Made by a program: the position numbers and the translations under genes. 64,000 nucleotides of DNA from the NCBI GenBank assembly GCA_937921695.1, contig CAKZTZ010000007.1:49719-113718 (forward strand). The letters are read 5' to 3'. The stretch comes from an uncultured Sulfolobales archaeon (GTDB lineage: Archaea > Thermoproteota > Thermoprotei_A > Sulfolobales > Acidilobaceae). Positions 38,624 through 57,078 of the stretch are shown piece after piece. Position 1 is the first letter of the stretch, and every line of letters starts with the position of its first letter. The notes under the pieces were generated by a model that was not told the DNA's origin, made no database searches, and worked only from the letters and a program-made list of their open reading frames with translations.

Positions 38624-39850
38624 CTATCGCCTCTGCTGGTTTACCCTATCGAGGAGTATTGAGTCTACCGCTTCTCTGATCCTCTCTGCCGGTATTTCGG
38701 GGGGTAGCCTTATTAGGGTTGTTTTGCCTCTCATTCCTTTCCCTGAGAGTCTAGCTTCTATGAGCCCTATTGTTGTCAGGTTTTTGAGGTAAGCATGGAA
38801 CTGTGTGTGTCCTCGCGGCTCTTCTCCATAGAATATTGATAGTTCCTCGTATTTCTTCCTTAGGTCTCCAGTCGTAGTCCAGCCTCCTTTCTCCATTGTT
38901 TCGGCGGCAACCGCAGCCACTATTATGAGCTCGTGGGTTGACAGGTTTCTAAGGTCTCCAAGAGGTATGTAGGCTAGGGCGCTCTCAGATATAGCTCTCC
39001 TCACATGCTCTTCTCTTATCGTGTTTTGTTCTTCAGCCTCCGCCAGCTCCGCGGCCGTCCTCAGCGTTAGTATTGCTTTCCTAGCGCTGCCATCGCCCCC
39101 CTTATCGTCCCCGAAATATTCGCTTATCATATCTAGTAAATATTCATCCCAGGAGCCGGGCGTTAAACCCTCTTCAGCCCTCTGGACTAGTATTGTTTTG
39201 AGCTCCTCACTAGTGTATGGTTTGAGGTGTACTCTGAAGCCTATCTGGCTCTCTATCTGCGGGATCCTCTCCCTCATGTAGGGCATCACTCTGAAGTCGC
39301 TAGCTACTAGGAGGAAGCTCATCCTGTTAAGCTCGTCCTTTGAAGGAACTTCCTCATATACTCTTAGAAGGGTGTAAAGGTCGTCATCGCTCATTTTAGG
39401 CGAGAGTAGGAGGCTCTGAAACTCGTCTATTACGACTAAGGAGAAAGTATCTTTAATATATAAATAGTCGACTATCGCCTTAAGGACTTCGATAGGAGAA
39501 CTCCCCCTAACACTAACGTTGAGACCTAGCTGATCCACTATAACTGAAAGTACCTGGTGTAGTGTGGGGGCTCCAAAAGCGTTCACATATACTGGTTTAA
39601 AGTTCACCCCCCTACTCTTAGCGAACTCTGAAAGACCCCTGCCGACGTGCCAGGCTACGGTAGTTTTACCTATACCGACTCTCCCTATGGAGCCGTATAT
39701 TAGTGATACATCTGTAAACCCGGAGTATTCCTGGAGCCTCGTAGCGTACCTTGAAATTATCATTGATGCTTCCTCCCCTCTCACGAGGAGTTTTCTGGGC
39801 TTGTAGCTCTCGTCAAACACCATTCTATCTCTGAATATCCTACTCGACAC
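38624..39850 (-). CDS. cdc6: Orc1/Cdc6-family AAA+ initiator paralog
   Basis: N-terminal IFRDRMVFDESYKPRKLLVRGEE, Walker A GRVGIGKTTVA, Walker B VVIDEFQSL, and a C-terminal winged helix FHAYLKNLTTIGLIEARLSGKGMRGKTTLIRL. Confidence 0.8.
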   Translation of the reverse strand: MSSRIFRDRMVFDESYKPRKLLVRGEEASMIISRYATRLQEYSGFTDVSLIYGSIGRVGIGKTTVAWHVGRGLSEFAKSRGVNFKPVYVNAFGAPTLHQVLSVIVDQLGLNVSVRGSSPIEVLKAIVDYLYIKDTFSLVVIDEFQSLLLSPKMSDDDLYTLLRVYEEVPSKDELNRMSFLLVASDFRVMPYMRERIPQIESQIGFRVHLKPYTSEELKTILVQRAEEGLTPGSWDEYLLDMISEYFGDDKGGDGSARKAILTLRTAAELAEAEEQNTIREEHVRRAISESALAYIPLGDLRNLSTHELIIVAAVAAETMEKGGWTTTGDLRKKYEELSIFYGEEPRGHTQFHAYLKNLTTIGLIEARLSGKGMRGKTTLIRLPPEIPAERIREAVDSILLDRVNQQRR

Positions 39851-42162: not shown

Positions 42163-42741
42163 TTAATCTAGGGTAGCGTATAGGGTTAAGGCTTTTAGGT
42201 TTAAATCTCTGCCTGGTAGGGTTTCAACGGATTTCATTAGACTGCGGGGGCTTATGAAGTCTTTGATATGGGAAACCCTATAGGCGTATCCTAGGAGTAT
42301 AATGTTAGCAACCCTGGAGTCTCCCAGTTTCTTAGCTTCCTCCGAGGCGCTTAAGAAGTGGGCTTCAAGCCCTGCGGATTTAACTGCTTCAACTATATCC
42401 TCTAACTTTAAAGGCTTAACCCCCGGTATTGAAGGTGGTATTATGAGAGTGTCGCTTACTATGACACCTTTCCTCCTCATATATCCTATGTTCCTCAGGG
42501 TCTCCATAGCCTCCATGCTTATCATTATATCAGCCTCCCCCATAGGTATTAGGGGGGCCTCTATGTTCTCCCCTATCCTAACATGGACTATGACGCTGCC
42601 GCCCCTCTGGCTCAGCCCGTGAGTCTCAGCTACGAGAGCTTCTAAACCATCTAGTACAGCTGCCTCCCCTAATACTCTAGCTAGACTCAGTATCCCCTGA
42701 CCTCCTACTCCCCCAACTATTATGTTCAGGCTCCCCCTCAC
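42163..42741 (-). CDS. iorB: Indolepyruvate:ferredoxin oxidoreductase beta subunit
   Basis: IIVGGVGGQGILS, 192 aa. It overlaps iorA by 4 nt. Confidence 0.85.
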   Translation of the reverse strand: MRGSLNIIVGGVGGQGILSLARVLGEAAVLDGLEALVAETHGLSQRGGSVIVHVRIGENIEAPLIPMGEADIMISMEAMETLRNIGYMRRKGVIVSDTLIIPPSIPGVKPLKLEDIVEAVKSAGLEAHFLSASEEAKKLGDSRVANIILLGYAYRVSHIKDFISPRSLMKSVETLPGRDLNLKALTLYATLD

Positions 42742-44666
42742 AGCTCCATCCCCAGGATCCTACCCCATTCTGGGTCCCCGGGCTCTAAGACTCTTATAGC
42801 GTTGAACGGGCACACTTGCTCGCAAACACCGCATCCAACGCATAGGCTGGCATTTATAGATACTCTACCATCTTCTCCAGGCATTATTGCCGGGCAGTTG
42901 AAAGCCTTATAGCATATCCCGCATGCTCTACACTTATCACTGTCTACGATGTAGATGGGCCTCTTAACCTTAAGGCTTGAAGCCCTCCTCACAGCATCTA
43001 GTATGCACGCACCTCTAGCGACTACCACATGGGTTTCACCTTCATACACAACATCTCTAATAGCCTCTCTTATCTTAGCCTCCACCTCCCTAGCGTTGAA
43101 AGAGTTAGCTACACTCACACGACTAACCCCAAGGCCTTTAACAACATCCTCTATAACTAGCTTCCTAGCCTCCCTCCCTAAGGCGTCACGGCCGGAGCCC
43201 GGGTGGGGTTGGTGGCCTGTCATAGCTGTGGTCCCATTATCTAAGACTAGGACAATCATGGGGGCACCGTTATATATGGAGTTCACAATCTCGGGGAGGC
43301 CGGCGTGGAAGAATGTTGAATCGCCTATAGTGGCCACTATAACTTTATCTTTAACGACGTGGGCTAAACCGTTAGCCAGCCCTATACCACCCCCCATCTC
43401 TATGAGGGTGTCCTGAACGTTAAACGGGGGGTTCAGGCCTAGGCTATAGCATCCTATGTCTCCAGAGTATATGGCTTCCATCTTTGACATTTTAACAGCC
43501 CTTCTTAGGGCATAGAATACACTCCTATAAGGGCACCCAGGGCATAGTACTGGAGGCCTTGGGGGTGGCGTTATAGGGGGGTTTATGGGGGTCTCAGGGC
43601 TATAGTTTAACCCTAAGATAGAAGCTAGGGCTTTAGTTACCGCGTCGGCTTTAAGCTCCCCACTCTTCTTCAAGTGTCTTGAGGCTTTACCGTAAACCTT
43701 AACTCTCACATCTTCCTCATATAGAATGCTTTTAAGGAGGGTCTCGAATACAGGGTCTCCCTCCTCGACAACAACTATGGCGCTCCTACCTTCAGACTCT
43801 CTCAGTAATAGTTTCCTAGGTGGCGGTATGCTCGTCACTATTTTTAAGAGCCTCACACTATTTAGAGCTTTCAGTTTGAAGAGAGACTCTCTAGCATACC
43901 TATAGCCTAAGCCGACACCCACCACCAGGATTTTCGAGTCTTCAGGCCCCTCAACAGTATTAATAGGGTTCTCTGAGAGCATCTCTTCCATCCTCTCCCA
44001 CCTGGATAAGAGCTCCTCCTTCAACTTCCTAGCGTGCATCGGCACTATATTCCATCTTGAAACGTCCTTAGTGAAAACACCTGAAAGCCTCGGCCTCGCT
44101 AGGGCCCCTAGGGTTACTGGGGCTCTTGTGTGGGAGACTCTAGTAGTTGACCTTAAAATTACCGGGTGCTTCATGTTTTCGCTAAACTTTAAAGCCTCGA
44201 GAGTGCTCTCGCGAGCCTCCTGAGCTCCGGCGGGCTCAAATACAGGTATATAGGCGTGTACACCATACCACCTATTATCCTGCTCGTTCTGACTACTCCA
44301 CATCCCCGGGTCGTCCGCAGATACTATGAGGAAAGATGCTTCCACACCCGTATAGGCACTACTGAATAGGGGGTCTGACGCGACATTCAAGCCCACATGC
44401 TTCATAGTTACTATACTTGGAACCCCGGCCATAGCTGAGCCATACGCTGCTTCAAACGCTACTTTCTCGTTTACACTCCACTCTACATAGGGATAGCCTA
44501 GCCTTGAGGCCGCATATGCTAGGGCTTCGATAACTTCTGAGGAAGGTGTTCCAGGATATCCTGAAGCGAACCCCACACCATGCTCGAGGCAAGCTCTAGC
44601 TACAGCCACGTTTCCGAGCATGAGAGCCCTAGAGCCCAGCTCCCCTAAAACTTCAGGGTAGCTCAA
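42738..44666 (-). CDS. iorA: Indolepyruvate:ferredoxin oxidoreductase alpha subunit
   Basis: TPP motif IGDSTFFHAG and two C-terminal ferredoxin motifs, CRACGICYKAFNCP and CVGCGVCEQVCP. Confidence 0.9.
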   Translation of the reverse strand: MSYPEVLGELGSRALMLGNVAVARACLEHGVGFASGYPGTPSSEVIEALAYAASRLGYPYVEWSVNEKVAFEAAYGSAMAGVPSIVTMKHVGLNVASDPLFSSAYTGVEASFLIVSADDPGMWSSQNEQDNRWYGVHAYIPVFEPAGAQEARESTLEALKFSENMKHPVILRSTTRVSHTRAPVTLGALARPRLSGVFTKDVSRWNIVPMHARKLKEELLSRWERMEEMLSENPINTVEGPEDSKILVVGVGLGYRYARESLFKLKALNSVRLLKIVTSIPPPRKLLLRESEGRSAIVVVEEGDPVFETLLKSILYEEDVRVKVYGKASRHLKKSGELKADAVTKALASILGLNYSPETPINPPITPPPRPPVLCPGCPYRSVFYALRRAVKMSKMEAIYSGDIGCYSLGLNPPFNVQDTLIEMGGGIGLANGLAHVVKDKVIVATIGDSTFFHAGLPEIVNSIYNGAPMIVLVLDNGTTAMTGHQPHPGSGRDALGREARKLVIEDVVKGLGVSRVSVANSFNAREVEAKIREAIRDVVYEGETHVVVARGACILDAVRRASSLKVKRPIYIVDSDKCRACGICYKAFNCPAIMPGEDGRVSINASLCVGCGVCEQVCPFNAIRVLEPGDPEWGRILGMEL

Positions 44667-44725: not shown

Positions 44726-45493
44726 ATGTATAAATACGTTAAGGTTAGTGTTGAAGAGGGCATCGGATGGATCATAATATCTAGGAGCGAGAAGCTTAAC
44801 GCCCTAAACAGCGAGCTCCTAGAAGAGCTAGTTAAAGCTGCTGGCGACTTCGACTCTAGAGAAGACGTTAAAATAATAGTTTTAACAGGAGAGGGCAGAG
44901 CCTTCTCGGCCGGGGCAGACCTCTCAGAGCCAGCTTCAGCCTCAACCCCTGAAGAAGCAGGCAGAGTATTCAGAAACCTAGCCAAACTAGTGAAGAGACT
45001 ATTCAACCTGGAGAAACCACTAATAATAGCTTTAAACGGTGACGCCTACGGGGGAGGAGCAGAGCTAATATGGGCGGCAGACCTAGTGCTAGCTGTGGAG
45101 AACGCTAAACTAGTCTGGCCCGAAGCTAGATGGGGCTATAATGCTCCAATCCTAGCAGCCCTGGGGCCGAGCATATTAGGTCCTTCGAGAACAGCACTCC
45201 TCGCCATGACGGCGGAGCCTCTAACAGCTAAAGAAGCACACCACTACGGGCTAATAGCTAAGCTAGCCCCAAACCAGGAAAGCCTCAAAGAGGAAGTGAA
45301 GAAGATAGCGAAAACAATAATGGAGAGTTCACCCCAGGGAATAAAATCAATAAAGAACGCATTGAGATTAGCGAAAACAAGCCCACTAATAGAGCTAGGC
45401 ATAAGCGAACTAGAAAGACTAGCAAGAGGGAGAGAAGCAATAGAAGCAGCTAAAGCCTTCATATCCAAGAGAAAACCAGAATATAAATGGTAA
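44726..45493 (+). CDS. Enoyl-CoA hydratase/isomerase (crotonase) family
   Basis: LTGEGRAFSAGADL and AYGGGAELIWAADL. Confidence 0.85.
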   Translation: MYKYVKVSVEEGIGWIIISRSEKLNALNSELLEELVKAAGDFDSREDVKIIVLTGEGRAFSAGADLSEPASASTPEEAGRVFRNLAKLVKRLFNLEKPLIIALNGDAYGGGAELIWAADLVLAVENAKLVWPEARWGYNAPILAALGPSILGPSRTALLAMTAEPLTAKEAHHYGLIAKLAPNQESLKEEVKKIAKTIMESSPQGIKSIKNALRLAKTSPLIELGISELERLARGREAIEAAKAFISKRKPEYKW

Positions 45494-46787: not shown

Positions 46788-47249
46788 ATGGGGGAATATT
46801 ACTTTGAAGATCTCCCTGTAGGGTTTAAGTATAGGAGCCCGTATGGTAGAACTATTACTGATGTGGATAATATTTGGTTTACTCTTTTAACTAACAATGT
46901 AAACCCTATACATTTTGATAAGGTTTATGTTGAGAGGAATTATGGAGGTGAACCTTTCTATGGGAATCTCGTTGTTAACGGTTTACTCACTCTCGCAATT
47001 GTCACGGGACTTACTACTGAACTCTCAGCTAGAGGCTTCATGGTAGGGCTTGAAAACGTGAGATGGCTTAAACCCGTATTCTCAGGGGACACTTTAACTG
47101 CAGAGTGTGATGTTGTCGAGGCTAGGCCTTCTAAGAGTATGCCGGGCTTTGGCCTGGTTAAGTTGAGAACTAAGGGGTATAACCAGAGAGGGGAAGTTGT
47201 AGTGGAGTTTGACAGGGTTATAATTGTTCCTAGGAGAACTAGAGGTTGA
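46788..47249 (+). CDS. MaoC-like (R)-specific enoyl-/mesaconyl-/itaconyl-CoA hydratase (single hot-dog), copy A
   Basis: 153 aa with NVNPIHFDKVYVE and the hot-dog fold pattern. It is a paralog of 53883..54353. Confidence 0.8.
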   Translation: MGEYYFEDLPVGFKYRSPYGRTITDVDNIWFTLLTNNVNPIHFDKVYVERNYGGEPFYGNLVVNGLLTLAIVTGLTTELSARGFMVGLENVRWLKPVFSGDTLTAECDVVEARPSKSMPGFGLVKLRTKGYNQRGEVVVEFDRVIIVPRRTRG

Positions 47250-47295
47250 GAAGGAGCCCCCCATACCTTAGTAGTTTGCAAAAGCCCTATGTAGC
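46800..47295 (+). repeat. Direct repeat copy A: maoC-like CDS from codon 5 through the stop, plus a truncated citE-like start (TTGAGAAGGAGCC...)
   Basis: It aligns by eye with 53904..54415 at roughly 85% nt identity, including a 73-nt perfect run (46998-47070 = 54102-54174). Confidence 0.8.
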
Positions 47296-47836
47296 CTGCT
47301 CTTCATTTCCTTTGAGTTGTTTATGGATTACCTGGTGCCGTCCAGGTCTTCTTACATTTTCTAGTGGCGTTTCTTGCTAAAGCACTTTCTATGGTTTCAT
47401 TAGCTATTCATAATTTTTAAATACTGATTCCTCCTTTTCTCCATAGCTGTCAACTCTCTGAAAGCTCTGGATTTGGAGCTAAATTTTATAATCTAAAGTT
47501 GTGATGCTTCACAGAACTATGGAATGAACTTTACGTAGTTGGAGTACTATGTAAAATTATAGTTCTAACTATAAAGCTAGTCTGGTAACTTGACAACAGT
47601 AGTAACACAATCTAGGTTGCCAAGTTGTCAAGTCAACAACCAGCCTTAATACTATACGCTTGCGAGCTATGGGTTACGTGTTAGGGATCGTTAATTTGCG
47701 ATGTCAGCATAATAGCTATCATAGTATTATTATGGTTGTTTTGCCTCAGGAATGTAATTTTTTAGATTAAGCATAAATCTTATATAAAGTTTATAAAGTT
47801 ACTTAGTAAAGCTGAAGGTAAGGAGGAAGGGCTTAT

Positions 47837-49180
47837 ATGAGTGTGACGAGAGACTTAGCGGATTTCGTCGTCAACACGAGTTATGAAGACCTTCCGGGGG
47901 AAGTCATAGAGCGTGCAAAACTTTGTATTTTAGACTGGCTTGGCTGCGCCTTAGCCGGTTCATTGGAGCCTCCAGCTAAAATAATAACTTCGATTATAGA
48001 GAAAACTGGAGGAAGGGAGGAATCCACTGTAATTGGTACGCGTGTAAAAACTTCCTCTATGAATGCAGCGTTGGCTAACGGAATATTTGGGCATGCTGTT
48101 GAATTGGATGATATACATGAAACGGCCATCATTCACCCGGCAGCACCAGTCCTCCCGGCAGCTTTAGCTGTTGCTGAGCATGTAAATGCGGGAGGTCAAG
48201 ATTTTATAACATCGGTTGTTCTAGGTTACGAGGTTGGGATAAGAGTTGGGATGGCTATAAACCCTTCACACTACCAGTTTTGGCATACCACCGGTACTGC
48301 TGGTACTTTTGGAGCTGCCGCTGCGGCGGGGAAAATTCTAGGTTTAAACATTGAAGAAATGGTGTACGCCTTGGGAATCGCCGGGACACAGGCAGCCGGC
48401 TTAATTGAGGTTTTTGGGACTATGAGTAAACCTTTCAATGCAGGAAAGGCTGCTGAAAATGGAGTCTGGGCCGCACTATTAGCTAAGGAGGGCTTTACCA
48501 GCTCAAGATCTATACTTGAGGCTGAGAAGGGATATTGTAGGGCTGCCGCCAGGGAGTGCGACCTCAACAGAATAACTGAAAACTTAGGAAGGGAATTTGA
48601 AATAATGAATAACATCTTTAAGATCCACGCCTCATGCGGTCACACACACGGCGCTATTGATGCTGTTATCCAGTTATCTAAAGAGCAAGGCATTAAACCT
48701 GAAGATGTTGATAGGATTGTGGTGAGAACATATCCTATTGCTGTTGATGTTGTCGGCAAAAACTATGAACCAAAGACAGCCCCCGAGGCAAAGTTCAGTC
48801 TACCCTACTGTTTAGCGGTTGCGCTAATTTATGGTAAGGTTGGTCTAACAGAGTTCTCTGAAGAGAAGCTGCGCGATCTAAAAATCCGGAAACTTTCAAA
48901 AAGAGTCACAGTCATGGTTGACCCGGAATATACTAGTGCTCGATTAGGGCCCGCCAAGGTTACCCTGTACACTATAGATGGGAAGGAGTTTACGTGCCGT
49001 GTAGATATTCCAAAGGGTTATCCCAAGAACCCGGTAACTAGAGAGGAGCTTGAGGGAAAATTCGTAGACCTAGCCTCTCTTGTATTACCTAGTGAGAGAG
49101 TTAAGGAAATCGCAAGGACTGTAAATAGCTTAGAAAAACTCGACAGGATAACGTTTCTAGCCGATCTTCTACGTAAATGA
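47837..49180 (+). CDS. MmgE/PrpD-family protein (2-methylcitrate dehydratase / cis-aconitate decarboxylase superfamily)
   Basis: 447 aa with the N-terminus LADFVVNTSYEDLPGEVIERAKLCILDWLGCALAG, plus HAVELDD and FKIHASCGHTHGAIDA. It is preceded by the SD-like aaggaggaag. Confidence 0.85.
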   Translation: MSVTRDLADFVVNTSYEDLPGEVIERAKLCILDWLGCALAGSLEPPAKIITSIIEKTGGREESTVIGTRVKTSSMNAALANGIFGHAVELDDIHETAIIHPAAPVLPAALAVAEHVNAGGQDFITSVVLGYEVGIRVGMAINPSHYQFWHTTGTAGTFGAAAAAGKILGLNIEEMVYALGIAGTQAAGLIEVFGTMSKPFNAGKAAENGVWAALLAKEGFTSSRSILEAEKGYCRAAARECDLNRITENLGREFEIMNNIFKIHASCGHTHGAIDAVIQLSKEQGIKPEDVDRIVVRTYPIAVDVVGKNYEPKTAPEAKFSLPYCLAVALIYGKVGLTEFSEEKLRDLKIRKLSKRVTVMVDPEYTSARLGPAKVTLYTIDGKEFTCRVDIPKGYPKNPVTREELEGKFVDLASLVLPSERVKEIARTVNSLEKLDRITFLADLLRK

Positions 49181-49712
49181 ATACCGTTAACAGCTCAAAC
49201 AACATAATTGACCTGGAGGAGGCTTTAAAGATTATTAACGCCTTCAAGGTGCATTCTAAAGTCGGGAAGAGCTGATAGCCGCCATGAATATTACTAAAAA
49301 CCTTGCTAGAACACCAAGAAAACGACCTTGTTAATCATGGGAGAATGTTAAACCATATTATTATAGTTAACACGATGTGACAGCCGCTAACTGTTGAAAC
49401 CTTTTGGGGGAAACCGGGGTTCAACAAGCTTGAGATAATCGGTGGATAGTTTATTATTTAAATCGTGGGACCCTAACCAGCTTCATAAAGATTGTAGAGC
49501 TACATACAGAAGGAAAGAAATATCTAACTTTATACTATACAGAAAAAGTATGTGCCATCAAAACTAACTAAAAATTATCCATGACAACTCTGATCTCACT
49601 CTTTAAATACTCTTTATGATGGCGTCATAGAAGGTTTCTGGAAAAAGTTAGAGGCTAGAAGCATATCTAGAATTAATATTGGGAATGCTACTTTTACTTA
49701 TGCCGATAACCA

Positions 49713-50627
49713 TCACATATCAGCATTAGATTTTAAGGCCGTCCTTTTAATGATTATCTCATAGGTCATCAGTATTTCCTTAGCTATCTTATATGTGGCC
49801 TCATCAATCATCCTTCCCTCAACAGAGATGGCGCCCAAGCCTATTGCTTTAGCCTTCTCATAAGCTTCAACTATCTTCTTAGCTAAGTTAACGTCTTTCT
49901 CTGAGGGGGAGAAGATTTGATTAATGGGCTCAATATGCGCCGGGTGGATGCACATCTTGCCTTTAAATCCTAAGCTCAACGCTATTCGGGATTCTTTAAT
50001 TAACCCTTCTTTATCCGTTATAAGGCCAAGGAATGGAGTATCTATAGCTGGAACTTCAGCTAATCTCGAAGCTAACGCTATACGTGATCTGGCGTAGAGG
50101 ATTTCAGTTTGTTCAGGGGATAGGGAGAAATAACTTAGCCCGAGATCACGCATGTAATCAGCAGCCCCGAATCCTACGGCGATCAAGCGTTCACTCGCTG
50201 TGACTATTTCATTTACGTTCAAGACCCCCCTAGCGCTCTCAATGAGAGGAATTATTCCAGTTTCGGCTAATCTTTTTTCCCTCTCCTCACTCTCTATAAG
50301 TTTCTCTAGTTTCGAAACATCGTCTCTTGATTCTGATTTGGGGAGCATGATGGCGTCAACGCCTTCCTGGACGGCAAACTTGAGGTCTTCTCGTGTTAGG
50401 CCTGTGGTTAGCCCGTTTACTCTAATAACAACATTGTGGCCAGCTTCTTTTAATAATCCAATAGCGTCTTTAACGAGCCATCTAGCCGTCTCTTTCTCCT
50501 CCATGGGAACAGCGTCTTCCAAGTCCAGTATAATAGCGTCTGGTTTCTCTTCTTTAGCGCTCTGAATAAACCTCCAGTTGTTTGCGGGAACGAAGAGCAT
50601 GGACCTAAGTGGTTTTAATCGACCCAT
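49713..50627 (-). CDS. citE: CitE/HpcH-family acyl-CoA lyase (citryl-/malyl-/citramalyl-CoA lyase type)
   Basis: RSMLFVPANNWRF, IILDLEDAVP, and IPLIESARGVLNVNEI...GFGAADY. Confidence 0.85.
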   Translation of the reverse strand: MGRLKPLRSMLFVPANNWRFIQSAKEEKPDAIILDLEDAVPMEEKETARWLVKDAIGLLKEAGHNVVIRVNGLTTGLTREDLKFAVQEGVDAIMLPKSESRDDVSKLEKLIESEEREKRLAETGIIPLIESARGVLNVNEIVTASERLIAVGFGAADYMRDLGLSYFSLSPEQTEILYARSRIALASRLAEVPAIDTPFLGLITDKEGLIKESRIALSLGFKGKMCIHPAHIEPINQIFSPSEKDVNLAKKIVEAYEKAKAIGLGAISVEGRMIDEATYKIAKEILMTYEIIIKRTALKSNADM

Positions 50628-50638
50628 ATTATAGCCCC

Positions 50639-51535
50639 CTATTTCCTAAGTATTTTAGCTGCGGTTAAGGCCAATTCTTGAGGTTTGCCGACCACATAAG
50701 CCCCCGCGTCTCTAAGGGCTTTTTCTTTAATTTCAGCGGTGTCTCTTCTACGTTGAACAATCGCGCTGGCGTGCGAGAATCTGATGCCACTAGGTAATGT
50801 TCTTCCAGCAATATAAACTACAAGCGGCTTCGTATATTTGCCCTCTTTAATTACTTCTGCAACCTCGCTTTCCATAACTCCACCAATTTCTCCAAATAGC
50901 ACAACAAGGTCTGTTTCAGGATCTTTTTCGAAAAGCTCCAGATATTCAGCAGCAGTTGTGCCCACAATTACTTCAGTCCCTGTGTGAACAGCAGTACTTA
51001 TTCCTAAACCCTGCCTGGATATAGTCCATGAGACTGTAGTTACTTGCCCCCCGCTTCTCGATATTACACCTACATGTCCAGGCTTAAACGCTTCTCTCGC
51101 AAGCTCCTTCGCACCTCCAATCCAGCCGCACAAAGCTTTCCCAGGGCTGATGATTCCTAGAGATCCGGGACCAATTATCCTAGCGCCTTTCTCCTTAGCT
51201 CTGGCTATGATTTCCAAAATGTCATGTAATGGAACTCGCTCAACAGGCATCACTAAAGTCTTTATTCCAGCCTCTAAGGCTTCTATAGCAGCACTTTTAA
51301 CTAGTGGGGCTGGAACAAATGTTGCGCTCATATCTATAGGCCCATGTTCCTTAACAGCTTCCTTAACAGTATTATATACCGGCACACCCCAGACCCGCTC
51401 GCCTCCACGGCCGGGGGTAACCCCTGCAACAACTTTTGTACCATATTCAACCATGAGCCTGGTGGCGAACTCTCCTGTTCTACCCGTTATACCTTGCACG
51501 AGCACAGTGGTTTTCTCATCTATGATTATAGCCAT
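50639..51535 (-). CDS. Succinyl-CoA synthetase alpha-like subunit (CoA-binding and phosphohistidine domains), divergent
   Basis: It is collinear with SucD: VLVQGITGRTGEF, GVTPGRGG and VISRSGG. The active-site His is in FSHASAIV (SucD has GHAGA), and HTGTEV sits where SucD has GIGGDP. Confidence 0.8.
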   Translation of the reverse strand: MAIIIDEKTTVLVQGITGRTGEFATRLMVEYGTKVVAGVTPGRGGERVWGVPVYNTVKEAVKEHGPIDMSATFVPAPLVKSAAIEALEAGIKTLVMPVERVPLHDILEIIARAKEKGARIIGPGSLGIISPGKALCGWIGGAKELAREAFKPGHVGVISRSGGQVTTVSWTISRQGLGISTAVHTGTEVIVGTTAAEYLELFEKDPETDLVVLFGEIGGVMESEVAEVIKEGKYTKPLVVYIAGRTLPSGIRFSHASAIVQRRRDTAEIKEKALRDAGAYVVGKPQELALTAAKILRK

Positions 51536-51544
51536 ATTACCACC

Positions 51545-53158
51545 TCAAATAAGCTCCCCATACTTTCTTCTAAACTCTTCCAGGCCGCGAACCGGGAGTT
51601 CAACAGTTATCGCCTTTCCTCCATATAGCTCGCATACCACCTCACATGCTAGGCACTCGTTACAAGTTCTTTTAAGCTCTTCAGGACTTCCTGTTAAGGC
51701 GATTTTCCCGCCAACTATTCTTAAGCACGGCCTTCCATACCACCTATCCGCCTTCACACATGCAAAACCACATTTAGGCGCGATACACTTGCTGAGGTCG
51801 ATGAACACCTTACCGGTCTGAGTTTCAAAAGATAAATATTCTTTGGGGCTAATGATCCGCTCTTCTTCTAGGAGAACGCTGGGGCCGCCTATCCGCTCTT
51901 TTTCCCTTCTATACTCCTCTACTAATGCTATCATTCTATCAGCGATAAAATCCACATCATATATGTGGTCACGTCCATAGAGTTCCCAGCGTAACGGTAA
52001 ATCCCTTAATCCTTCCCTTATAATCCTATGAGTTTCACGCTCTTTATTTCCAGCTATTAATATTAAGACTGGAAAACCAGGTCTTTTCTTAGCCTCTTCT
52101 CTAAACGCCTTTACAATGGCATAGGCGTGATACCACTGTTCTTGGTTAGCAAGAACCGCTCCAGCTAAGCAGTAGCCCTCAATCCCGGGAATCGAAAGTA
52201 TGAGCTTTACGACCCTGTAGACTTTTGATGCAGCGGGATTCCCGCTAGTATCCACATAGGTGGCTAGCTTAAGCCCCTTTCGCATTAAAGCGTCAGCTGC
52301 AAGCATAGCTGCGCCCCCGCCTATGCCATGAAAAGCTATGTAGCCCCCTTTTCTTATCTCATCAATATTAGGGTTTAGCTGTACAAAATAGCTGACCCCC
52401 CTATAGTCTCCCTCCTCTATCTCCTTCCATGCGGTAATCTCAAGCTCCATAGGAGGCCTCATCATATCGCGGGGTACCTCTATTTTAAACTCGGGATGGC
52501 GGAACACGGAATTATCGTCTATTGTTATTCTGCAGTCTCCTGCAACCAACCGCCCCTCCCTAGTTAAAATGATCGGATTTATCTCTACTACACTGGCATC
52601 TGTTTTCACAAACACTTCATATAGTTTGCAAGCAATATTACTTAGCAAATCTACCGTATTATGTGGAACTTCAAGCTTTGATACTAGCCTTTGCGCGTCG
52701 GGAAGCTGGAGTCCACGAAGGTAGTCTATATCTATTGAAGATATTTTTTCCGGATATTTCTCCGCCACCTCCTCTACATCCACACCTCCCTCAGTGCTGA
52801 ATAGAATGGTTGGGCCCTTAACCTTGTAGGAGTCGTTAACGATTATGCTTAGGAAGAATTCCTTTTCCACATCGAGCCTCTCTTCTACCAAGACTTTCTC
52901 TACCTTCAAACCTCTAATTTCTCCCCCTAACATTTCCCATGCTATACTTTCAGCCTCCTGAGGGGAATCTGCAAACTTTATTCCACCAGCCTTAAACCGA
53001 CCAGTAGTCAAAACTTGCGCCTTAATCACAACAGGTTTGCCGATTCTCTCAGCTATCTTCATAGCTTCATGCGGGGTGGACGCTACCTCGCCTTCAGGAA
53101 CGGGGATACCAACGCTTTTAAGCAAATTTTTACATTGATACTCATATAATCGGACCAT
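51545..53158 (-). CDS. Succinyl-CoA synthetase beta / ATP-citrate-lyase-beta-like ATP-grasp subunit fused to a C-terminal ~95-aa 8-Cys ferredoxin-like domain
   Basis: ATP-grasp start YEYQCKNLLKSVGIPVP...VVIKAQVLTTGR and IAFHGIGGGAAMLAADAL. The C-terminal extension reads FIDLSKCIAPKCGFACVKADRWYGRPC...CNECLACEVVCE. Confidence 0.8.
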   Translation of the reverse strand: MVRLYEYQCKNLLKSVGIPVPEGEVASTPHEAMKIAERIGKPVVIKAQVLTTGRFKAGGIKFADSPQEAESIAWEMLGGEIRGLKVEKVLVEERLDVEKEFFLSIIVNDSYKVKGPTILFSTEGGVDVEEVAEKYPEKISSIDIDYLRGLQLPDAQRLVSKLEVPHNTVDLLSNIACKLYEVFVKTDASVVEINPIILTREGRLVAGDCRITIDDNSVFRHPEFKIEVPRDMMRPPMELEITAWKEIEEGDYRGVSYFVQLNPNIDEIRKGGYIAFHGIGGGAAMLAADALMRKGLKLATYVDTSGNPAASKVYRVVKLILSIPGIEGYCLAGAVLANQEQWYHAYAIVKAFREEAKKRPGFPVLILIAGNKERETHRIIREGLRDLPLRWELYGRDHIYDVDFIADRMIALVEEYRREKERIGGPSVLLEEERIISPKEYLSFETQTGKVFIDLSKCIAPKCGFACVKADRWYGRPCLRIVGGKIALTGSPEELKRTCNECLACEVVCELYGGKAITVELPVRGLEEFRRKYGELI

Positions 53159-53663: not shown

Positions 53664-53740
53664 TGGCGCTCCAAGAGGGGGATTTGAACCCCCGACCACC
53701 CGGTCTTCAGCCGGGCGCTCTCCCGCTGAGCTATGGTGCT
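53664..53740 (-). pseudogene. tRNA-Phe-derived pseudo-tRNA / att-like remnant
   Basis: The 57-nt core (53677-53733), from the D-arm through the GAA anticodon arm to the T-arm, is 100% identical to the intact tRNA-Phe at 57004-57078. The flanks (5' AGCACCA; 3' UCUUGGAGCGCCA) cannot form a 7-bp acceptor stem. Confidence 0.6.
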
Positions 53741-53882
53741 CTCTCATCTGCTTTAAGAGAGTAGGAAATATAAAGTTTCAACTTGTTTGGGTTTATGCTT
53801 CTAGTGATGGAAAAATGAATAGTCCTTGATTAAGCTAGAAGTGCATCAGCGTTAAAACCTTCATACGCTTATAAAGGGAAAG

Positions 53883-54353
53883 ATGGCGTTTGTGAGGGAG
53901 TTATACTTTGAAGACCTCCCTGTGGGGTTCAAATATAGGAGCCCGTATGGTAGAACTATTACCGATGTGGATAATATTTGGTTTACTCTTTTAACTAACA
54001 ATGTTAACCCTATACATTTTGATAAGGTCTACGTTGAGAGGAATTATGAGGGCGAGTCTTTCCACGGGAGGCCAGTCGTCAATGGCCTACTAACTCTAGC
54101 TATTGTCACGGGACTTACTACTGAACTCTCAGCTAGAGGCTTCATGGTAGGGCTTGAAAACGTGAGATGGCTTAGCCTCGTATTCTCAGGAGATACTTTA
54201 ACAGGTGAGTGTGAAGTAGTAGAAGCTAGGCCCTCCAAGAGCAGACCGGAATACAGCATTATCAGGTTAAAGACTAAAAGATATAACCAGAAAGGGGAGG
54301 TTGTAATGGAGTTCGACAAGATAATAATGGTCCCTAGGAGGGCTGGAGGTTGA
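53883..54353 (+). CDS. MaoC-like hydratase, copy B
   Basis: 156 aa, about four-fifths identical by eye to copy A (YFEDLPVGFKYRSPYGRTITDVDNIWFTLLTNNVNPIHFDKVYVERNY...). Confidence 0.75.
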   Translation: MAFVRELYFEDLPVGFKYRSPYGRTITDVDNIWFTLLTNNVNPIHFDKVYVERNYEGESFHGRPVVNGLLTLAIVTGLTTELSARGFMVGLENVRWLSLVFSGDTLTGECEVVEARPSKSRPEYSIIRLKTKRYNQKGEVVMEFDKIIMVPRRAGG

Positions 54354-54415
54354 GAAGAAGCCTCCTTTATACCCCGGCTAACAACGAGAAAATGCTTAGG
54401 AAAGCCCCTACACTT
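53904..54415 (+). repeat. Direct repeat copy B (maoC-like CDS plus the start of the citE pseudogene)
   Basis: See copy A (46800..47295). Confidence 0.8.
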
Positions 54416-55239
54416 GGAGCTGATGTCCTAATAGTAGATCTCAAAGATGCTGCTCTTAGAGTTTAAGGGGAGGCTAGAGCTTTAATTGGGAGACTATTTA
54501 GAGACCCTGGGTATGTTGAGAGTTTGAAGGGAGTCAAGGAAGTATGTGTAAGGGTTAATAGTCTATCGAGCCCTGAGGGGCTCAGAGATTTAGCCTTAAT
54601 AGTAGAACTGGAGAGAGTAAACTGTATAGTTGTGCCTAAAGCTGAAGGGGGCATACCATTCCTCTATAAAGCTACAGGTAAAAGATTGATTGCCATAGTG
54701 GAGACGCTAAAGGTCTCATCAGGGTAGAAGATATAGTGGCTTCCGAGGGCATCGAAGCTATAGCCCTTGGTATTGCAAATTTAGCTTTAAGCCTTAAGGG
54801 ATCTAGGGAGGCCTACGAGAATAACCTCTACATTAGAACTCTCATAGCAGCTGCCGCCAGGGCTTACGGCCTAGACCTATAGACAAGGTTTACTTTAAAG
54901 TTGACGATGCCGAAGGTTTCAAAGCTGAAGCCTTAGAAGCTAGAGCACTCGGCTATTCAGGCAACAAGTAATACACCAGGTTGAAATAGCTAGTAAAATA
55001 TTCAACCCAACACGGGAGGAAATAGGGTGGGCTAGAGAAGCGTGAGAGTATACGAAGAACCAGTTAAAAGCTGGTGGGGAGCTGTGAGATACAAAGGTGA
55101 GCTTATAGACCACGTTCACTACAAGATAGCCAGAAGAATCCTAGAAACGTTAAAACTTAACTCGCACCTTTTTCATGCTGAAAGAAGATTTAAGCCTCAT
55201 AGACTCAAAATCTCTCATTTCAGCATTCTCTCTTACTGA
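54350..55239 (+). pseudogene. citE: Disrupted citE-family lyase gene (in-frame TAA at 54464-54466 plus at least three frameshifts)
   Basis: Stitching frames by eye gives LRRSLLYTPANNEKMLRKAPTLGADVLIVDLKDAALRV*GEARAL...VVPKAEGG...IAIVETLKG / LIRVEDIVASEGIEAIALGIANLALSL...AAAARAYGLDL / IDKVYFKVDDAEGFKAEALEARALGYSGKQVIH / EIASKIFNPTREEIGWA / VYEEPVKSWWGAVRYKGELIDHVHYKIARRILE. This is collinear with the intact CitE at 49713..50627. The TTG start overlaps the maoC-B stop. Confidence 0.75.
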
Positions 55240-55288
55240 AACCTATCAAGGTCTCCCCCTACTATAACGTTTACTCTAGGAATTCAAT

Positions 55289-56461
55289 CTACTTCTTCCA
55301 GATCCAATACTCGTAGCCGTAGGGTGGCTGTTTTAACATCCTTTCTTTAATTAGATAATCTATTGTCTCGGTGAAAGCTAGATGATAGAACCAGGAGAAA
55401 AACTCTGCAAAACTAGAGTACCCGCTTGCTTTAAGTTTTTTAAAGGTATTCTGGATTTCGTCTAGGTTCTTATAGATTACATTGAAGATATGAGTAGACA
55501 TGTAGTTTATGAAGCTGTCAATAATGTTCATGTCTTCTCTCGTGTAAACTGGAGCTTGTGGATTGAGGTTTTCATCTAAGTATAGCCATTCTTTCAGGTA
55601 TTTCGCTGACTCCTCACCTATCTCGTAACCACTCTCATAGTATTTCCTCTCGTATTCTCTAAGGATCTTCGACACTTTGTCATCCAATTTCTTCATGACG
55701 ACATCTCTCTCGTGAACTGGAAGTTCCACAAATTTTTTATAGGCTTTTGAAGGGTCATTTTCACCCATTATCTCCATTAGAAGTTTAATTAGAGAGTCGG
55801 GCGGGGAAGTTCTCCGCCTCTCTTTCTCCCCTCCAAAACTTGCGAACCCATATTCGCTTAACTCACCATAATGCATCCCGTACCGGCCTAGATATTCCAT
55901 GCCACCCTCTACGCCCCACATGTAATATTGGCCACCTTTCCTTGCAGGCGCTCTCAACATAATTCTCCCCTCTTCCCCAAACTTCTTCAACATACCTACG
56001 TCCAGCGAGTAAGCGCCTACCAGGACAAACCCGACCCTATCAAAGCTGAATCTAGGTGAGATGGAAAGCTTACGGTATGTCTCCATGACAACATCCCAAC
56101 GAGCCTTATAGACTTCTCCAAGTTCAACCCCCAAACGCCTGGCAGCATTCCTCGTTCTCCGCACCTCCTCCCTTAACGCGATAAAGAAACCTGGAACTAT
56201 ACGCCCCTCTTTCTCTACTACAAACTCTGCTTCCTTCAGATGCCTTAGGTGACTCTCCACATCCCGCTCTGGAACATTAAGTAGTTTAGCTATACTTCTC
56301 ACAGAATAACCCTTATGAAGCCCTATTACAATACCTTTACGAACTTGCTCTCGGAAAATAACAAAAGGATCGTATTCCAAACAATAACTACCAGCAATAA
56401 TCACGTTAAACCTCGCAGCCCTCTCATTTAAATCCTTAATAAGCCCCACGGTCATGATCAC
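55289..56461 (-). CDS. Hypothetical protein with an N-terminal winged-helix domain and an unknown ~290-aa C-terminal domain
   Basis: 390 aa with the wHTH-like GYSVRSIAKLLNVPERDVESHLRHLKEAEFVVEKEGRI. Codon usage is foreign (AAA/GAA-rich, CGN Arg codons). Confidence 0.5.
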   Translation of the reverse strand: MIMTVGLIKDLNERAARFNVIIAGSYCLEYDPFVIFREQVRKGIVIGLHKGYSVRSIAKLLNVPERDVESHLRHLKEAEFVVEKEGRIVPGFFIALREEVRRTRNAARRLGVELGEVYKARWDVVMETYRKLSISPRFSFDRVGFVLVGAYSLDVGMLKKFGEEGRIMLRAPARKGGQYYMWGVEGGMEYLGRYGMHYGELSEYGFASFGGEKERRRTSPPDSLIKLLMEIMGENDPSKAYKKFVELPVHERDVVMKKLDDKVSKILREYERKYYESGYEIGEESAKYLKEWLYLDENLNPQAPVYTREDMNIIDSFINYMSTHIFNVIYKNLDEIQNTFKKLKASGYSSFAEFFSWFYHLAFTETIDYLIKERMLKQPPYGYEYWIWKK

Positions 56462-57003
56462 CTTTACATAAATAAAGGAGCCTATCTTACCCTTATAACT
56501 CTATTCTTAACACAATATTTAAACTACACGTCCCAGACATAATTGTAAACCCGTATAACAATGGACTTAGCACATTTGATCTTAAAGATAACTAAGCTTC
56601 ATAAACCCATCATAACCACATCACATAGCGCTCCTCCGCTAATGTATTTAATGATATTTCTATATGCTTTTATTTCTGTTAACAGGATTAGTTCCCACCC
56701 CTTCATTAGCTCCAAGAGCGTGAAATCATGTAGAGCTCAATGCTGGGGGCTTCTATATGTTTTGCGAGGCCTCCCTATTCGTAGTGTGTGTCGCCTGAAG
56801 GCTTTAGGGTATAGGTGGGTGACGGTTTTATAGACCTAGTGCCTCTCCATAATGAGCACTGCTATATACGCGCATTCATATAAACTTATCGTTACTCCTA
56901 TAGCAGCCTCATTGAAATATGTTTGCTCTTACCACTACTAACACTTTTCCCATTAAACTCTGCTTAGACTCTGCATTTCTGTTCTCTTTACTAGGATCAT
57001 ATA

Positions 57004-57078
57004 TGGTGCCGCCGGGGGGATTTGAACCCCCGACCACCCGGTCTTCAGCCGGGCGCTCTCCCGCTGAGCTACGGCGGC
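57004..57078 (-). tRNA. tRNA-Phe (anticodon GAA), CCA encoded, no intron
   Basis: Folded by hand: GCCGCCG-UA-GCUC-AGCGGGA-GAGC-G-CCCGG-CUGAAGA-CCGGG-UGGUC-GGGGG-UUCAAAU-CCCCC-CGGCGGC-A-CCA, a perfect cloverleaf. Confidence 0.9.

Follow-up and report, generated by a model that had tools for sequence, protein, structure and literature searches.

An archaeal thiokinase–CitE gene module with an accessory MmgE/PrpD-family gene: possible ATP-dependent activation and splitting of a 2-hydroxy acid

The citryl-CoA synthetase and citryl-CoA lyase of Hydrogenobacter thermophilus (CcsAB and Ccl) and ATP-citrate lyase (ACL) share a two-step logic: an ADP-forming thiokinase of the succinyl-CoA synthetase (SCS) family is followed by a lyase that releases acetyl-CoA. 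A gene module with this logic is present in a 64,000-nt stretch of DNA (termed the window) from contig CAKZTZ010000007.1 of an uncultured Sulfolobales archaeon (assembly GCA_937921695.1). The module encodes the beta and alpha subunits of an SCS-like thiokinase and a CitE-family lyase, and a gene of the MmgE/PrpD family (the PrpD-like gene) lies next to these. Its beta subunit also has a C-terminal domain of the ACL/citryl-CoA synthetase (CCS) type. Unlike CcsAB/Ccl and ACL, however, the module has a CitE-type TIM-barrel lyase (HpcH/CitE) and not one of the citrate-synthase type, an eight-cysteine ferredoxin-like domain in or beside beta, loop motifs ANQE and LI, a PrpD-family gene in some genomes, and a substrate that is predicted from sequence. 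To our knowledge, no characterized member of the SCS family has an iron-sulfur domain of its own.

Malate thiokinase (MtkAB) with malyl-CoA lyase (Mcl) in the serine cycle, and the anaerobic malyl-CoA pathway, also combine an SCS-family thiokinase with a CitE-family lyase in reversible, ATP-linked reactions. The module differs in that its beta subunit scores 161 bits with the malate-CoA ligase MtkA model (NF010647, cut-off 604) and in that glycolate dehydrogenase genes are not found near it; in addition, we know of no Fe-S domain in characterized Mtk. The Ict, Ich, Ccl, Mcd and Msi cluster of P. aeruginosa and Cupriavidus necator (PMC12290011) links a His/Tyr two-base PrpD-family protein with a lyase of the CitE family and an enzyme for CoA activation, and plasmid-borne relatives of the PrpD-like gene (~40% identity) sit in exactly such clusters. 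The module, in contrast, would activate its substrate by an ATP-dependent thiokinase and not by a CaiB-type CoA transferase, has no conserved acyl-CoA dehydrogenase (ACAD) or hydratase, and is hosted by anaerobic archaea and bacteria. The module thus matches these three systems in logic but fails a defining feature of each. The Yersinia ripABC (Ich-Ccl) system, where a small MaoC hydratase is directly followed by a CitE-family lyase, resembles only a second unit in the window, consisting of a maoC copy and a decayed citE gene (see below). This unit differs from ripABC in that its scores are under the equivalog cut-offs, a CoA transferase is not adjacent and the lyase gene is broken.

The first-pass annotation of positions 46788–53158 had named four enzyme families (MaoC, MmgE/PrpD, SCS-like and CitE), and all four are confirmed by Pfam and NCBIfam searches. 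The features of this region are:

46788–47249, + strand: maoC-A, a single hot-dog (R)-hydratase of 153 aa, RipB/Ich-like (PF01575, 58.8 bits)
47250–47836: spacer between maoC-A and the PrpD-like gene, AT-rich, non-coding, 587 bp
47837–49180, + strand: MmgE/PrpD-family gene (PF03972, 281 bits; PF19305, 162 bits)
49713–50627, − strand: CitE/HpcH acyl-CoA lyase gene (PF03328, 180 bits), last gene of the thiokinase operon
50639–51535, − strand: thiokinase alpha, SCS-alpha-like (SucD-like; NCBIfam sucD, 275 bits)
51545–53158, − strand: thiokinase beta, SCS-beta-like, whole gene, 537 aa
51842–53158, − strand: beta core, ATP-grasp and ACL/citryl-CoA-synthetase-type acid-binding domain (PF08442, 198 bits; PF16114, 36.6 bits)
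51548–51841, − strand: beta C-terminal 8-Cys ferredoxin-like domain (translation Cx4Cx3Cx10C ... CxxCxxCxxxC)

The intergenic gaps are 9 bp between beta and alpha and 11 bp between alpha and CitE, thus the three genes form one operon. The PrpD-like gene is convergent to this operon, at a distance of 532 bp. The spacer at 47250–47836 has no open reading frame of at least 60 aa and no Rfam match, and an Rfam scan of two long spacers showed no riboswitch or other RNA.

The gene set is read here, tentatively, as a horizontally mobile catabolic module that would activate and split a 2-hydroxy-dicarboxylate, and not as a four-enzyme itaconate pathway. The thiokinase, ADP-forming, of the succinyl-/citryl-CoA-synthetase family and acting through a phosphohistidine, would join CoA to the -CH2-COO- arm of the free 2-hydroxy-dicarboxylate, and the CitE-type lyase would split the resulting CoA ester into acetyl-CoA and a 2-oxoacid. 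Both steps would be reversible and could run towards ATP formation. The PrpD-like protein may act on the free acid as an epimerase/isomerase, or possibly as a hydro-lyase, and feed the stereoisomer that the thiokinase accepts. With a C5 substrate, (R)- or (S)-citramalate would give pyruvate and acetyl-CoA; alternatively, methylsuccinate could be converted to mesaconate and then to (S)-citramalate by the Sdh/Tfr-like and class I fumarase-type enzymes that are encoded beside the module in other genomes. A MaoC hydratase would not be required. Gene content, pattern of conservation, domain types and residue signatures are observed, whereas the substrate, the direction of the reactions and the part played by the Fe-S domain are inferred.

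The thiokinase subunits are related to succinyl-CoA synthetase. Alpha is below the cut-off of the sucD model (275 bits, cut-off 336), and beta is below that of SucC (248 bits, cut-off 370). The phosphohistidine loop of alpha is kept as SHASA, with His255 aligned to the histidine of E. coli SucD GHAGA. There is a 6-aa insert after the GG loop in the module alphas (window, L003, L066), and the archaeal ones display GTEVIVG for SucD GGDP and SHASA for GHAGA. Beta passes the cut-off of PF16114 Citrate_bind (36.6 bits, cut-off 26.8) and has no match to PF00549 Ligase_CoA. The controls show the reverse: SucC of the same genome (contig C28) and E. coli SucC match PF00549 (82 and 114 bits) and not Citrate_bind, and both the Citrate_bind and the Fe-S domains are absent from them. 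An identity with succinyl-CoA synthetase SucCD is unlikely in view of the two missed equivalog cut-offs, the missing PF00549 match and the presence of a canonical SucCD pair on contig C28 of the same genome.

The best solved match of the beta C-domain is the large subunit of citryl-CoA synthetase (6hxq_B, E = 4e-12), followed by Chlorobium ACL and then SCS. The loop motifs ANQEQW and ILIAGNKE are clade-specific, and ANQE and LI stand where ACL/CCS have ANFT/ANNT and RR. The ANFT/RR positions presumably include the citrate contacts Asn346, Thr348 and Arg379 of human ACLY, although this is a weak point. The type of the acid-binding domain points to a citrate-shaped 2-hydroxy acid (malate, citramalate or citrate) as the probable substrate, over itaconate or succinate. 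The proposal that the SCS-like enzyme activates itaconate does not agree with this domain type, which indicates a 2-hydroxy acid.

The last ~95 residues of beta contain eight cysteines in a ferredoxin-like pattern, with sub-threshold Fer4 matches in Pfam (20 bits). In Bathyarchaeia (99 aa in one contig) and others, the Cys-rich domain is a separate gene of 96–110 aa that is located between beta and alpha, and some copies carry the JGI label "ferredoxin-like protein FixX". It is presumed to be an iron-sulfur domain.

The CitE lyase displays 36% identity to E. coli CitE, with RVN, IES and GAxDY motifs aligned in both. Its best NCBIfam match is citE (247 bits, cut-off 443), and it scores 193 bits with RipC_Ccl (cut-off 375), below both cut-offs; the malyl-CoA lyase model NF041626 gives 86 bits (cut-off 500). 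All module proteins are below every NCBIfam equivalog cut-off. Among solved structures Mcl is the best match (5ugr, 153 bits), followed by CitE (134), CLYBL (121) and RipC (116). These are about equidistant, and an assignment of substrate from the nearest structures was dropped for that reason.

The PrpD-like protein is closest among solved structures to iminodisuccinate epimerase (195 bits) and to the B. subtilis "IRG1" protein of unknown function (190), then to cis-aconitate decarboxylase (CAD, 128) and E. coli PrpD (1szq, 59). It misses all NCBIfam PrpD equivalog cut-offs (87, 69 and 56 bits, with cut-offs of 575, 458 and 950, respectively) and has 23% identity to E. coli PrpD. In a quick tree, the window protein is in an archaeal clade apart from the clade of genes linked to ACAD, CaiB, CitE and MaoC, and E. 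coli PrpD and a PrpD-type paralog from contig C22 of the same genome are outside the PrpD-like subfamily. The missed cut-offs, the low score with 1szq and the tree position speak against a true 2-methylcitrate dehydratase. The first-pass annotation had held that a protein grouping with true PrpD, together with prpC and prpB elsewhere in the genome, would speak against its route. No such grouping is found; PrpB is present in the genome, but PrpC or a citrate synthase was not found in it. There are no prpB or prpC genes near the module, PrpB and the PrpD-type paralog being on contigs C1 and C22.

The core residues of human CAD (hCAD), Asp93, His103, His159, Lys207 and Lys272, correspond to Glu89, His100, His150, Lys198 and Lys262 of the PrpD-like protein. 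This carboxylate-binding and catalytic core is common to all MmgE/PrpD members and does not discriminate between them. The roles of the hCAD residues have been described, including the core and Thr97, His277 and Tyr318, each required for activity (PMC6789909). The latter three are replaced by Ile93, Cys267 and Val305 in the PrpD-like protein. A fungal CAD also differs at four of eight sites (PMC6789909), so the replacements lower the CAD claim without excluding it. Tyr146 of the PrpD-like protein aligns with Tyr145 of iminodisuccinate epimerase; E. coli PrpD has no Tyr at this position. With the CAD-specific residues replaced, the epimerase-type Tyr present and a closer match to iminodisuccinate epimerase, an identity as CAD is not supported, and neither is the step from cis-aconitate to itaconate in the first-pass annotation.

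Seven residues of the P. aeruginosa methylsuccinate isomerase (His88, Glu91, His102, Tyr148, His152, Lys202, Lys266) are all present in the window protein with matched spacing (His86, Glu89, His100, Tyr146, His150, Lys198, Lys262), and all seven are invariant among 18 archaeal homologs. Members with this Tyr have been assigned a two-base mechanism, and CAD has been assigned a one-base mechanism (PMC12290011). Because the His/Tyr residue set is kept and the PrpD and CAD signatures are absent, the PrpD-like protein is predicted to be a two-base (His100/Tyr146) epimerase/isomerase or, with less probability, a hydro-lyase, whose substrate would be a free substituted succinate. The tested methylsuccinate isomerases probably belong to another clade than the window protein, and 96% of the described methylsuccinate isomerases are in Pseudomonadota (PMC12290011).

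The distribution of the module was examined in 80 species-representative loci, 301 sampled genomes of the phylum and six genomes of the same family. PrpD-like homologs are widespread, in Nezhaarchaeales, Bathyarchaeia and other archaea. The PrpD gene also adjoins beta-alpha-CitE on one contig of Nezhaarchaeales (74% identity) and one of Bathyarchaeia (59%), and the full set of PrpD, beta, alpha and CitE is present in five archaeal loci among the 80. The beta-alpha-CitE trio itself is recurrent (Nezhaarchaeales, Bathyarchaeia and Ignisphaera loci and five further archaeal genomes), with PrpD adjacent in some only. A same-strand PrpD-beta-alpha-CitE operon is also found in ~15 bacterial species, annotated mostly as Thermodesulfobacteriota or "Deltaproteobacteria", with a PrpD identity of 40%–47%; the thiokinase in these bacteria is of another clade, with 32% identity. 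The conserved core is beta-alpha-CitE, and the PrpD-like gene is an accessory that is attached in a subset of genomes. The clustered C5 route of the first-pass annotation is partly supported. PrpD, thiokinase and CitE co-occur in other genomes; MaoC is outside the conserved unit. In public annotations the genes are named as succinyl-CoA synthetase subunits and 2-methylcitrate dehydratase, and literature searches on the module in archaea or on a CitE-type citryl-CoA lyase yielded no characterization and nothing specific.

The genes that accompany the module in other genomes bear on the substrate. Within 6 kb of the PrpD-like gene (n = 88 loci) are SCS-beta-like genes in 41 loci, Sdh/Tfr-like in 23, ACAD in 15 and class I fumarase-like in 11. 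Genes for TAXI-TRAP or MFS transporters (uptake) flank the module. In one genome (G288) CitE is followed by a near-canonical two-subunit archaeal class I fumarase (272.6 bits, cut-off 276). The Ignisphaera and bacterial modules adjoin a soluble 530-aa flavoprotein of the SdhA/TfrA/NadB family (L066:9733-11322, L073:761-2362), which reaches no NCBIfam cut-off (best TfrA, 335 and 274 bits, cut-off 718). In the bacterial operons SdhCAB follows, and in one case it precedes within the same operon. Some of the plasmid-borne relatives are in clusters with ACAD, CaiB, CitE and MaoC, and one is in a MaoC-PrpD-CitE operon. Two parallel gene sets thus accompany the subfamily, one for a CoA-ester route (transferase, acyl-CoA dehydrogenase, MaoC, lyase) and one of Sdh/Tfr, FumA, thiokinase and CitE, which could do the same chemistry on free acids. 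Because of these parallel sets the C5 series is ranked first, and citramalate is the top guess for the substrate, then citrate or malate; this ranking is the least certain part of the reading. The mesaconate/citramalate variant of the first-pass annotation, in this limited sense, stays the leading guess, as the subfamily recurs beside CitE and CoA-activating enzymes in C5-type clusters.

Several observations weigh against a C5-splitting module with an isomerase. The substrate is predicted only from family likeness and neighbours. Of five additional archaeal carriers, four have the beta-(Fd)-alpha-CitE trio with no close PrpD-like gene next to it, and therefore the core works without the isomerase. 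Genes of methylsuccinate isomerases always adjoin an acyl-CoA dehydrogenase gene (PMC12290011); no ACAD gene was found adjoining the PrpD-like gene, the nearest in the window being at ~15.5–16.6 kb, some 30 kb off. The PrpD tree, from a quick and incomplete search, has long branches and contains no experimentally tested isomerase sequence. Several neighbours point to citrate. The Nezhaarchaeales operon extends upstream with an oxaloacetate decarboxylase beta (OAD-beta) subunit and a biotin carrier, with a TAXI-TRAP importer further upstream; CitG is beside CitE in genome G193; and on a Halorussus aquaticus plasmid (NZ_CP100402.1; L119, 7001–10390) a 39%-identical PrpD-like gene has an MFS transporter gene on one side and a gene annotated as tricarballylate dehydrogenase (TcuA) on the other, a hint that tricarboxylates are the substrates of some subfamily members. 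The best NCBIfam model for CitE is that of citrate lyase beta. Finally, the fumarase and Sdh neighbours could be ordinary genes of the tricarboxylic acid (TCA) cycle, which would favour malate/malyl-CoA.

Among the alternatives, a citrate-type C6 module survives best, although it is unlikely. The thiokinase would be a citryl-CoA synthetase and CitE a citryl-CoA lyase, forming a non-fused analogue of ACL with a CitE-type lyase in the place of the citrate-synthase-type Ccl. Imported citrate would be converted to acetyl-CoA and oxaloacetate, or the reverse reaction would make (methyl)citrate with a yield of ATP. The accepted form would be supplied by the PrpD-like protein from a related tricarboxylate, which could be cis-aconitate, a 2-methylcitrate stereoisomer or the oxidation product of tricarballylate. 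The Citrate_bind match, 6hxq_B as best solved match and citE as best NCBIfam match of the lyase (247 bits) all agree with this, although the ACL/CCS motifs ANFT/ANNT and RR are replaced by ANQE and LI. Of the neighbours, OAD-beta with the biotin carrier is as in bacterial citrate fermentation, and the TAXI-TRAP importer, CitG and TcuA also fit. On the other hand citrate is prochiral, and an isomerase would not be needed.

The citrate synthase family, PF00285, was not found in eight of eight carriers, against 139 of the 301 genomes overall and six of six same-family genomes with it. The source genome has an AcnA-type aconitase of 901 aa on contig C26 (L015:16896-19601), a true methylisocitrate lyase PrpB on contig C1 (C1:112282-113001; L124:6226-7182; 414 bits, cut-off 354) and the PrpD-type paralog on contig C22 (L016:8457-9839), which is 31% identical to E. 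coli PrpD and has the LDFNDT..HPSD motif in common with it. No PrpC or citrate synthase was found in this genome, which is a metagenome-assembled archaeal genome of 1.39 Mb in 34 contigs and just 86.6% complete. The other carriers, however, have no AcnA-type aconitase (five of five tested), and PrpB is above cut-off in none of seven. Since AcnA and PrpB are also missing there, the lack of citrate synthase seems to be a trait of the lineage and not a sign of replacement. Complementarity with citrate synthase was dropped as strong evidence on these grounds and in view of the completeness of the source genome. A deletion of citrate synthase is not demonstrable, as the same-family genomes are too diverged for synteny, and a methylcitrate-cycle reading built on the true PrpB and the PrpD-type paralog does not generalize to the other carriers.

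A malate-type C4 module is doubtful also. Here an ATP-forming malate thiokinase would act with a malyl-CoA lyase, so that glyoxylate and acetyl-CoA give malyl-CoA and then malate and ATP; the fumarase/fumarate reductase neighbours would take malate to succinate, and the PrpD-like protein could perhaps act as an isomerase between D- and L-malate, or on a related acid. Physiologically, the anaerobic malyl-CoA pathway for the fermentation of glyoxylate/glycolate is a precedent; PMC8092247 cites it for Syntrophobotulus glycolicus and Moorella sp. HUC22-1. The near-canonical archaeal fumarase, the TfrA-like or SdhCAB neighbours and the Mcl structure 5ugr as best solved match of CitE are in agreement. 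But the malate-CoA ligase model is below the SucC model (161 versus 248 bits) and far under its cut-off, and no glyoxylate source is evident. No GlcD/E/F homolog is found within 10 kb of the ~90 loci examined, and a link to glycolate dehydrogenase was dropped on this basis. The methylsuccinate isomerases that were assayed, though probably of another clade, have no malate isomerase activity (PMC12290011).

A further idea, improbable in our estimate, follows from the presence of AcnA, true PrpB and a PrpD-type dehydratase in a genome where no synthase was found. The Fe-S thiokinase and CitE could be an ATP-conserving stand-in for citrate/methylcitrate synthase, by which acetyl- or propionyl-CoA and oxaloacetate give (methyl)citrate and ATP; the PrpD-like protein would epimerize the 2-methylcitrate stereoisomer that is formed by the CitE-type lyase.

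There remains MaoC, the fourth member of the proposed itaconate route. A second copy of its gene is found to the right of the module, in a segment marked by tRNA-Phe sequences; the first-pass annotation had overlooked this copy, the decayed citE gene after it, the tRNA-Phe remnant and, in the module, the 8-Cys domain of beta:

53664–53739, − strand: tRNA-Phe remnant; the core is that of the intact gene, the acceptor stem is gone, and the Rfam match covers model positions 7–64 only
53883–54353, + strand: maoC-B, second maoC copy, 83% protein identity to maoC-A
54356–55150, + strand: decayed citE-family gene, HpcH_HpaI matches in pieces, in-frame TAA
57004–57078, − strand: intact tRNA-Phe(GAA), right-hand limit of the low-GC stretch

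The DNA sequences of maoC-A and maoC-B are 88% identical over the first 300 nt, and the repeat alignment stops ~15 nt past the maoC stop codon. RipB_Ich is the best NCBIfam model for maoC-A, with a score below its cut-off (120 bits, cut-off 340). The nearest relatives are in Sulfolobales, Desulfurococcaceae and Acidilobaceae, and JGI labels some homologs as itaconyl-CoA hydratase. Directly upstream of maoC-A in the window (42163–44666, 44726–45493) are an IorA-like (642 aa, thiamine pyrophosphate domain and two 4Fe-4S) and IorB-like pair and then a crotonase-family enoyl-CoA hydratase (ECH). A contig with an 85%-identical MaoC (L110) has the same IorAB-ECH...MaoC order as the window, and therefore maoC-A looks resident.

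In the decayed citE gene, HpcH_HpaI matches are at 54356–54646 (with one TAA inside) and 54706–54879, and a C-terminal piece is at 55042–55149 in another frame. The pseudogene is only distantly similar to the module CitE. An intact, overlapping two-gene maoC-citE operon is present at another locus (L108), where MaoC is 74% identical and the best model for the lyase is RipC_Ccl. maoC-B and the citE pseudogene are a remnant of an Ich/Ccl-like (ripBC-like) pair that is separate from the module. Specificity for itaconate degradation is confined to the hydratase and the lyase (PMC12290011), and for this reason the window formerly held a small C5-CoA unit, distinct from the module, whose lyase is now broken.

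MaoC is not a conserved companion of the module. The two carriers of the closest modules, G165 and G045 (95% and 100% complete), yielded no MaoC homolog; three other carriers have a ~40%-identical MaoC on a contig different from that of the module; and the other loci examined have no MaoC gene up to 10 kb away from the module. MaoC adjoins the module in the window apparently through insertion of the latter beside a resident maoC and is not a pathway partner, contrary to the first-pass annotation. As a separate observation, in genomes G151 (C7:389-3568) and G193 (C2:159428-162475) both of which carry the module, the sole MaoC homolog (~40% identity) is no more than ~2 kb from a LeuC-like gene for an aconitase-family large subunit, and the thiokinase module is on another contig.

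The itaconate route as first proposed is highly improbable. In this route cis-aconitate would be decarboxylated by the PrpD homolog, itaconate would be activated by the SCS-like enzyme, itaconyl-CoA would be hydrated by MaoC and citramalyl-CoA would be split by CitE. In favour of the route are the four families within 6.4 kb, RipB/Ich as best model of MaoC with some homologs named accordingly by JGI, and the ability of succinyl-CoA synthetase to activate itaconate (PMC12290011). It may be speculated also that MaoC here could use the intact CitE of the module, its own partner being decayed. Against it are the replaced CAD-specific residues and the epimerase-type Tyr (195 bits with the epimerase, 128 with CAD), the missing MaoC in the closest carriers and next to the module elsewhere, the explanation of the maoC adjacency by insertion and the ACL/CCS-type acid domain. 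The itaconate four-enzyme route is unsupported, and the underlying module is real, conserved, mobile and unexplained. Least credible is a housekeeping set of a second succinyl-CoA synthetase, a 2-methylcitrate dehydratase and an unrelated aldolase as chance neighbours, which fits the names in public annotations and a canonical SdhA in the window 9 kb from the module (964 bits, cut-off 826) but not the missed NCBIfam equivalog cut-offs, the canonical SucCD and PrpD-type paralog elsewhere in the genome, the synteny of the trio across several archaeal lineages with its bacterial parallel, or the Citrate_bind and Fe-S domains that the SucC controls lack.

The chromosomal setting agrees with a mobile module. 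The beta C-terminal half is found in eight of the 301 genomes sampled from the phylum and was not found in any of the six same-family genomes. The GC content is 0.40–0.46 from 46 to 58 kb and 0.48–0.49 on either flank. The tRNA-Phe remnant repeats 60 nt of the intact tRNA-Phe at 57004–57078 and looks like an att-like mark of integration. In an 81%-identical relative the PrpD gene is divergent from the operon, and an integrase fragment and a DNA methylase gene are near. Because of the patchy distribution, the low GC, the tRNA-Phe remnant and the rearranged relative with its integrase fragment, the module is horizontally acquired and mobile, having apparently landed beside tRNA-Phe and a resident maoC.

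The 3.3-kb segment between the tRNA-Phe remnant and the intact copy (53664–57078) contains maoC-B, the citE pseudogene and a 390-aa open reading frame (55289–56461, − strand) that has no Pfam or NCBIfam match. The segment has the look of an integrated element, or else of a rearranged att site. It showed no integrase, and a third tRNA-Phe remnant was searched for at the left edge of the low-GC stretch and not found. The window encodes archaeal markers, including Orc1/Cdc6, archaemetzincin and DUF996. Two Orc1/Cdc6 genes are present in the genome, one in the window (38624–39850, ~7 kb upstream of the low-GC stretch) and one on contig C26 (L015:2836-4101).

If the reading as a module for the splitting of a 2-hydroxy acid is true, an uncharacterized ATP-coupled CoA-ester route would link acetyl-CoA and 2-oxoacids (by way of citramalate, malate or citrate) in Nezhaarchaeales, Bathyarchaeia and Desulfurococcales-type archaea, with a parallel form in anaerobic bacteria. 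The route would include an SCS-family enzyme with its own iron-sulfur domain, and the PrpD-like gene would carry a newly recognized MmgE/PrpD isomerase branch into archaea. Were the replacement of citrate synthase true instead, the module would be a new way of running the citrate-forming step of central metabolism. The present labels (succinyl-CoA synthetase, citrate lyase beta, 2-methylcitrate dehydratase) distort the calls of TCA and propionate pathways in metagenome-assembled genomes.

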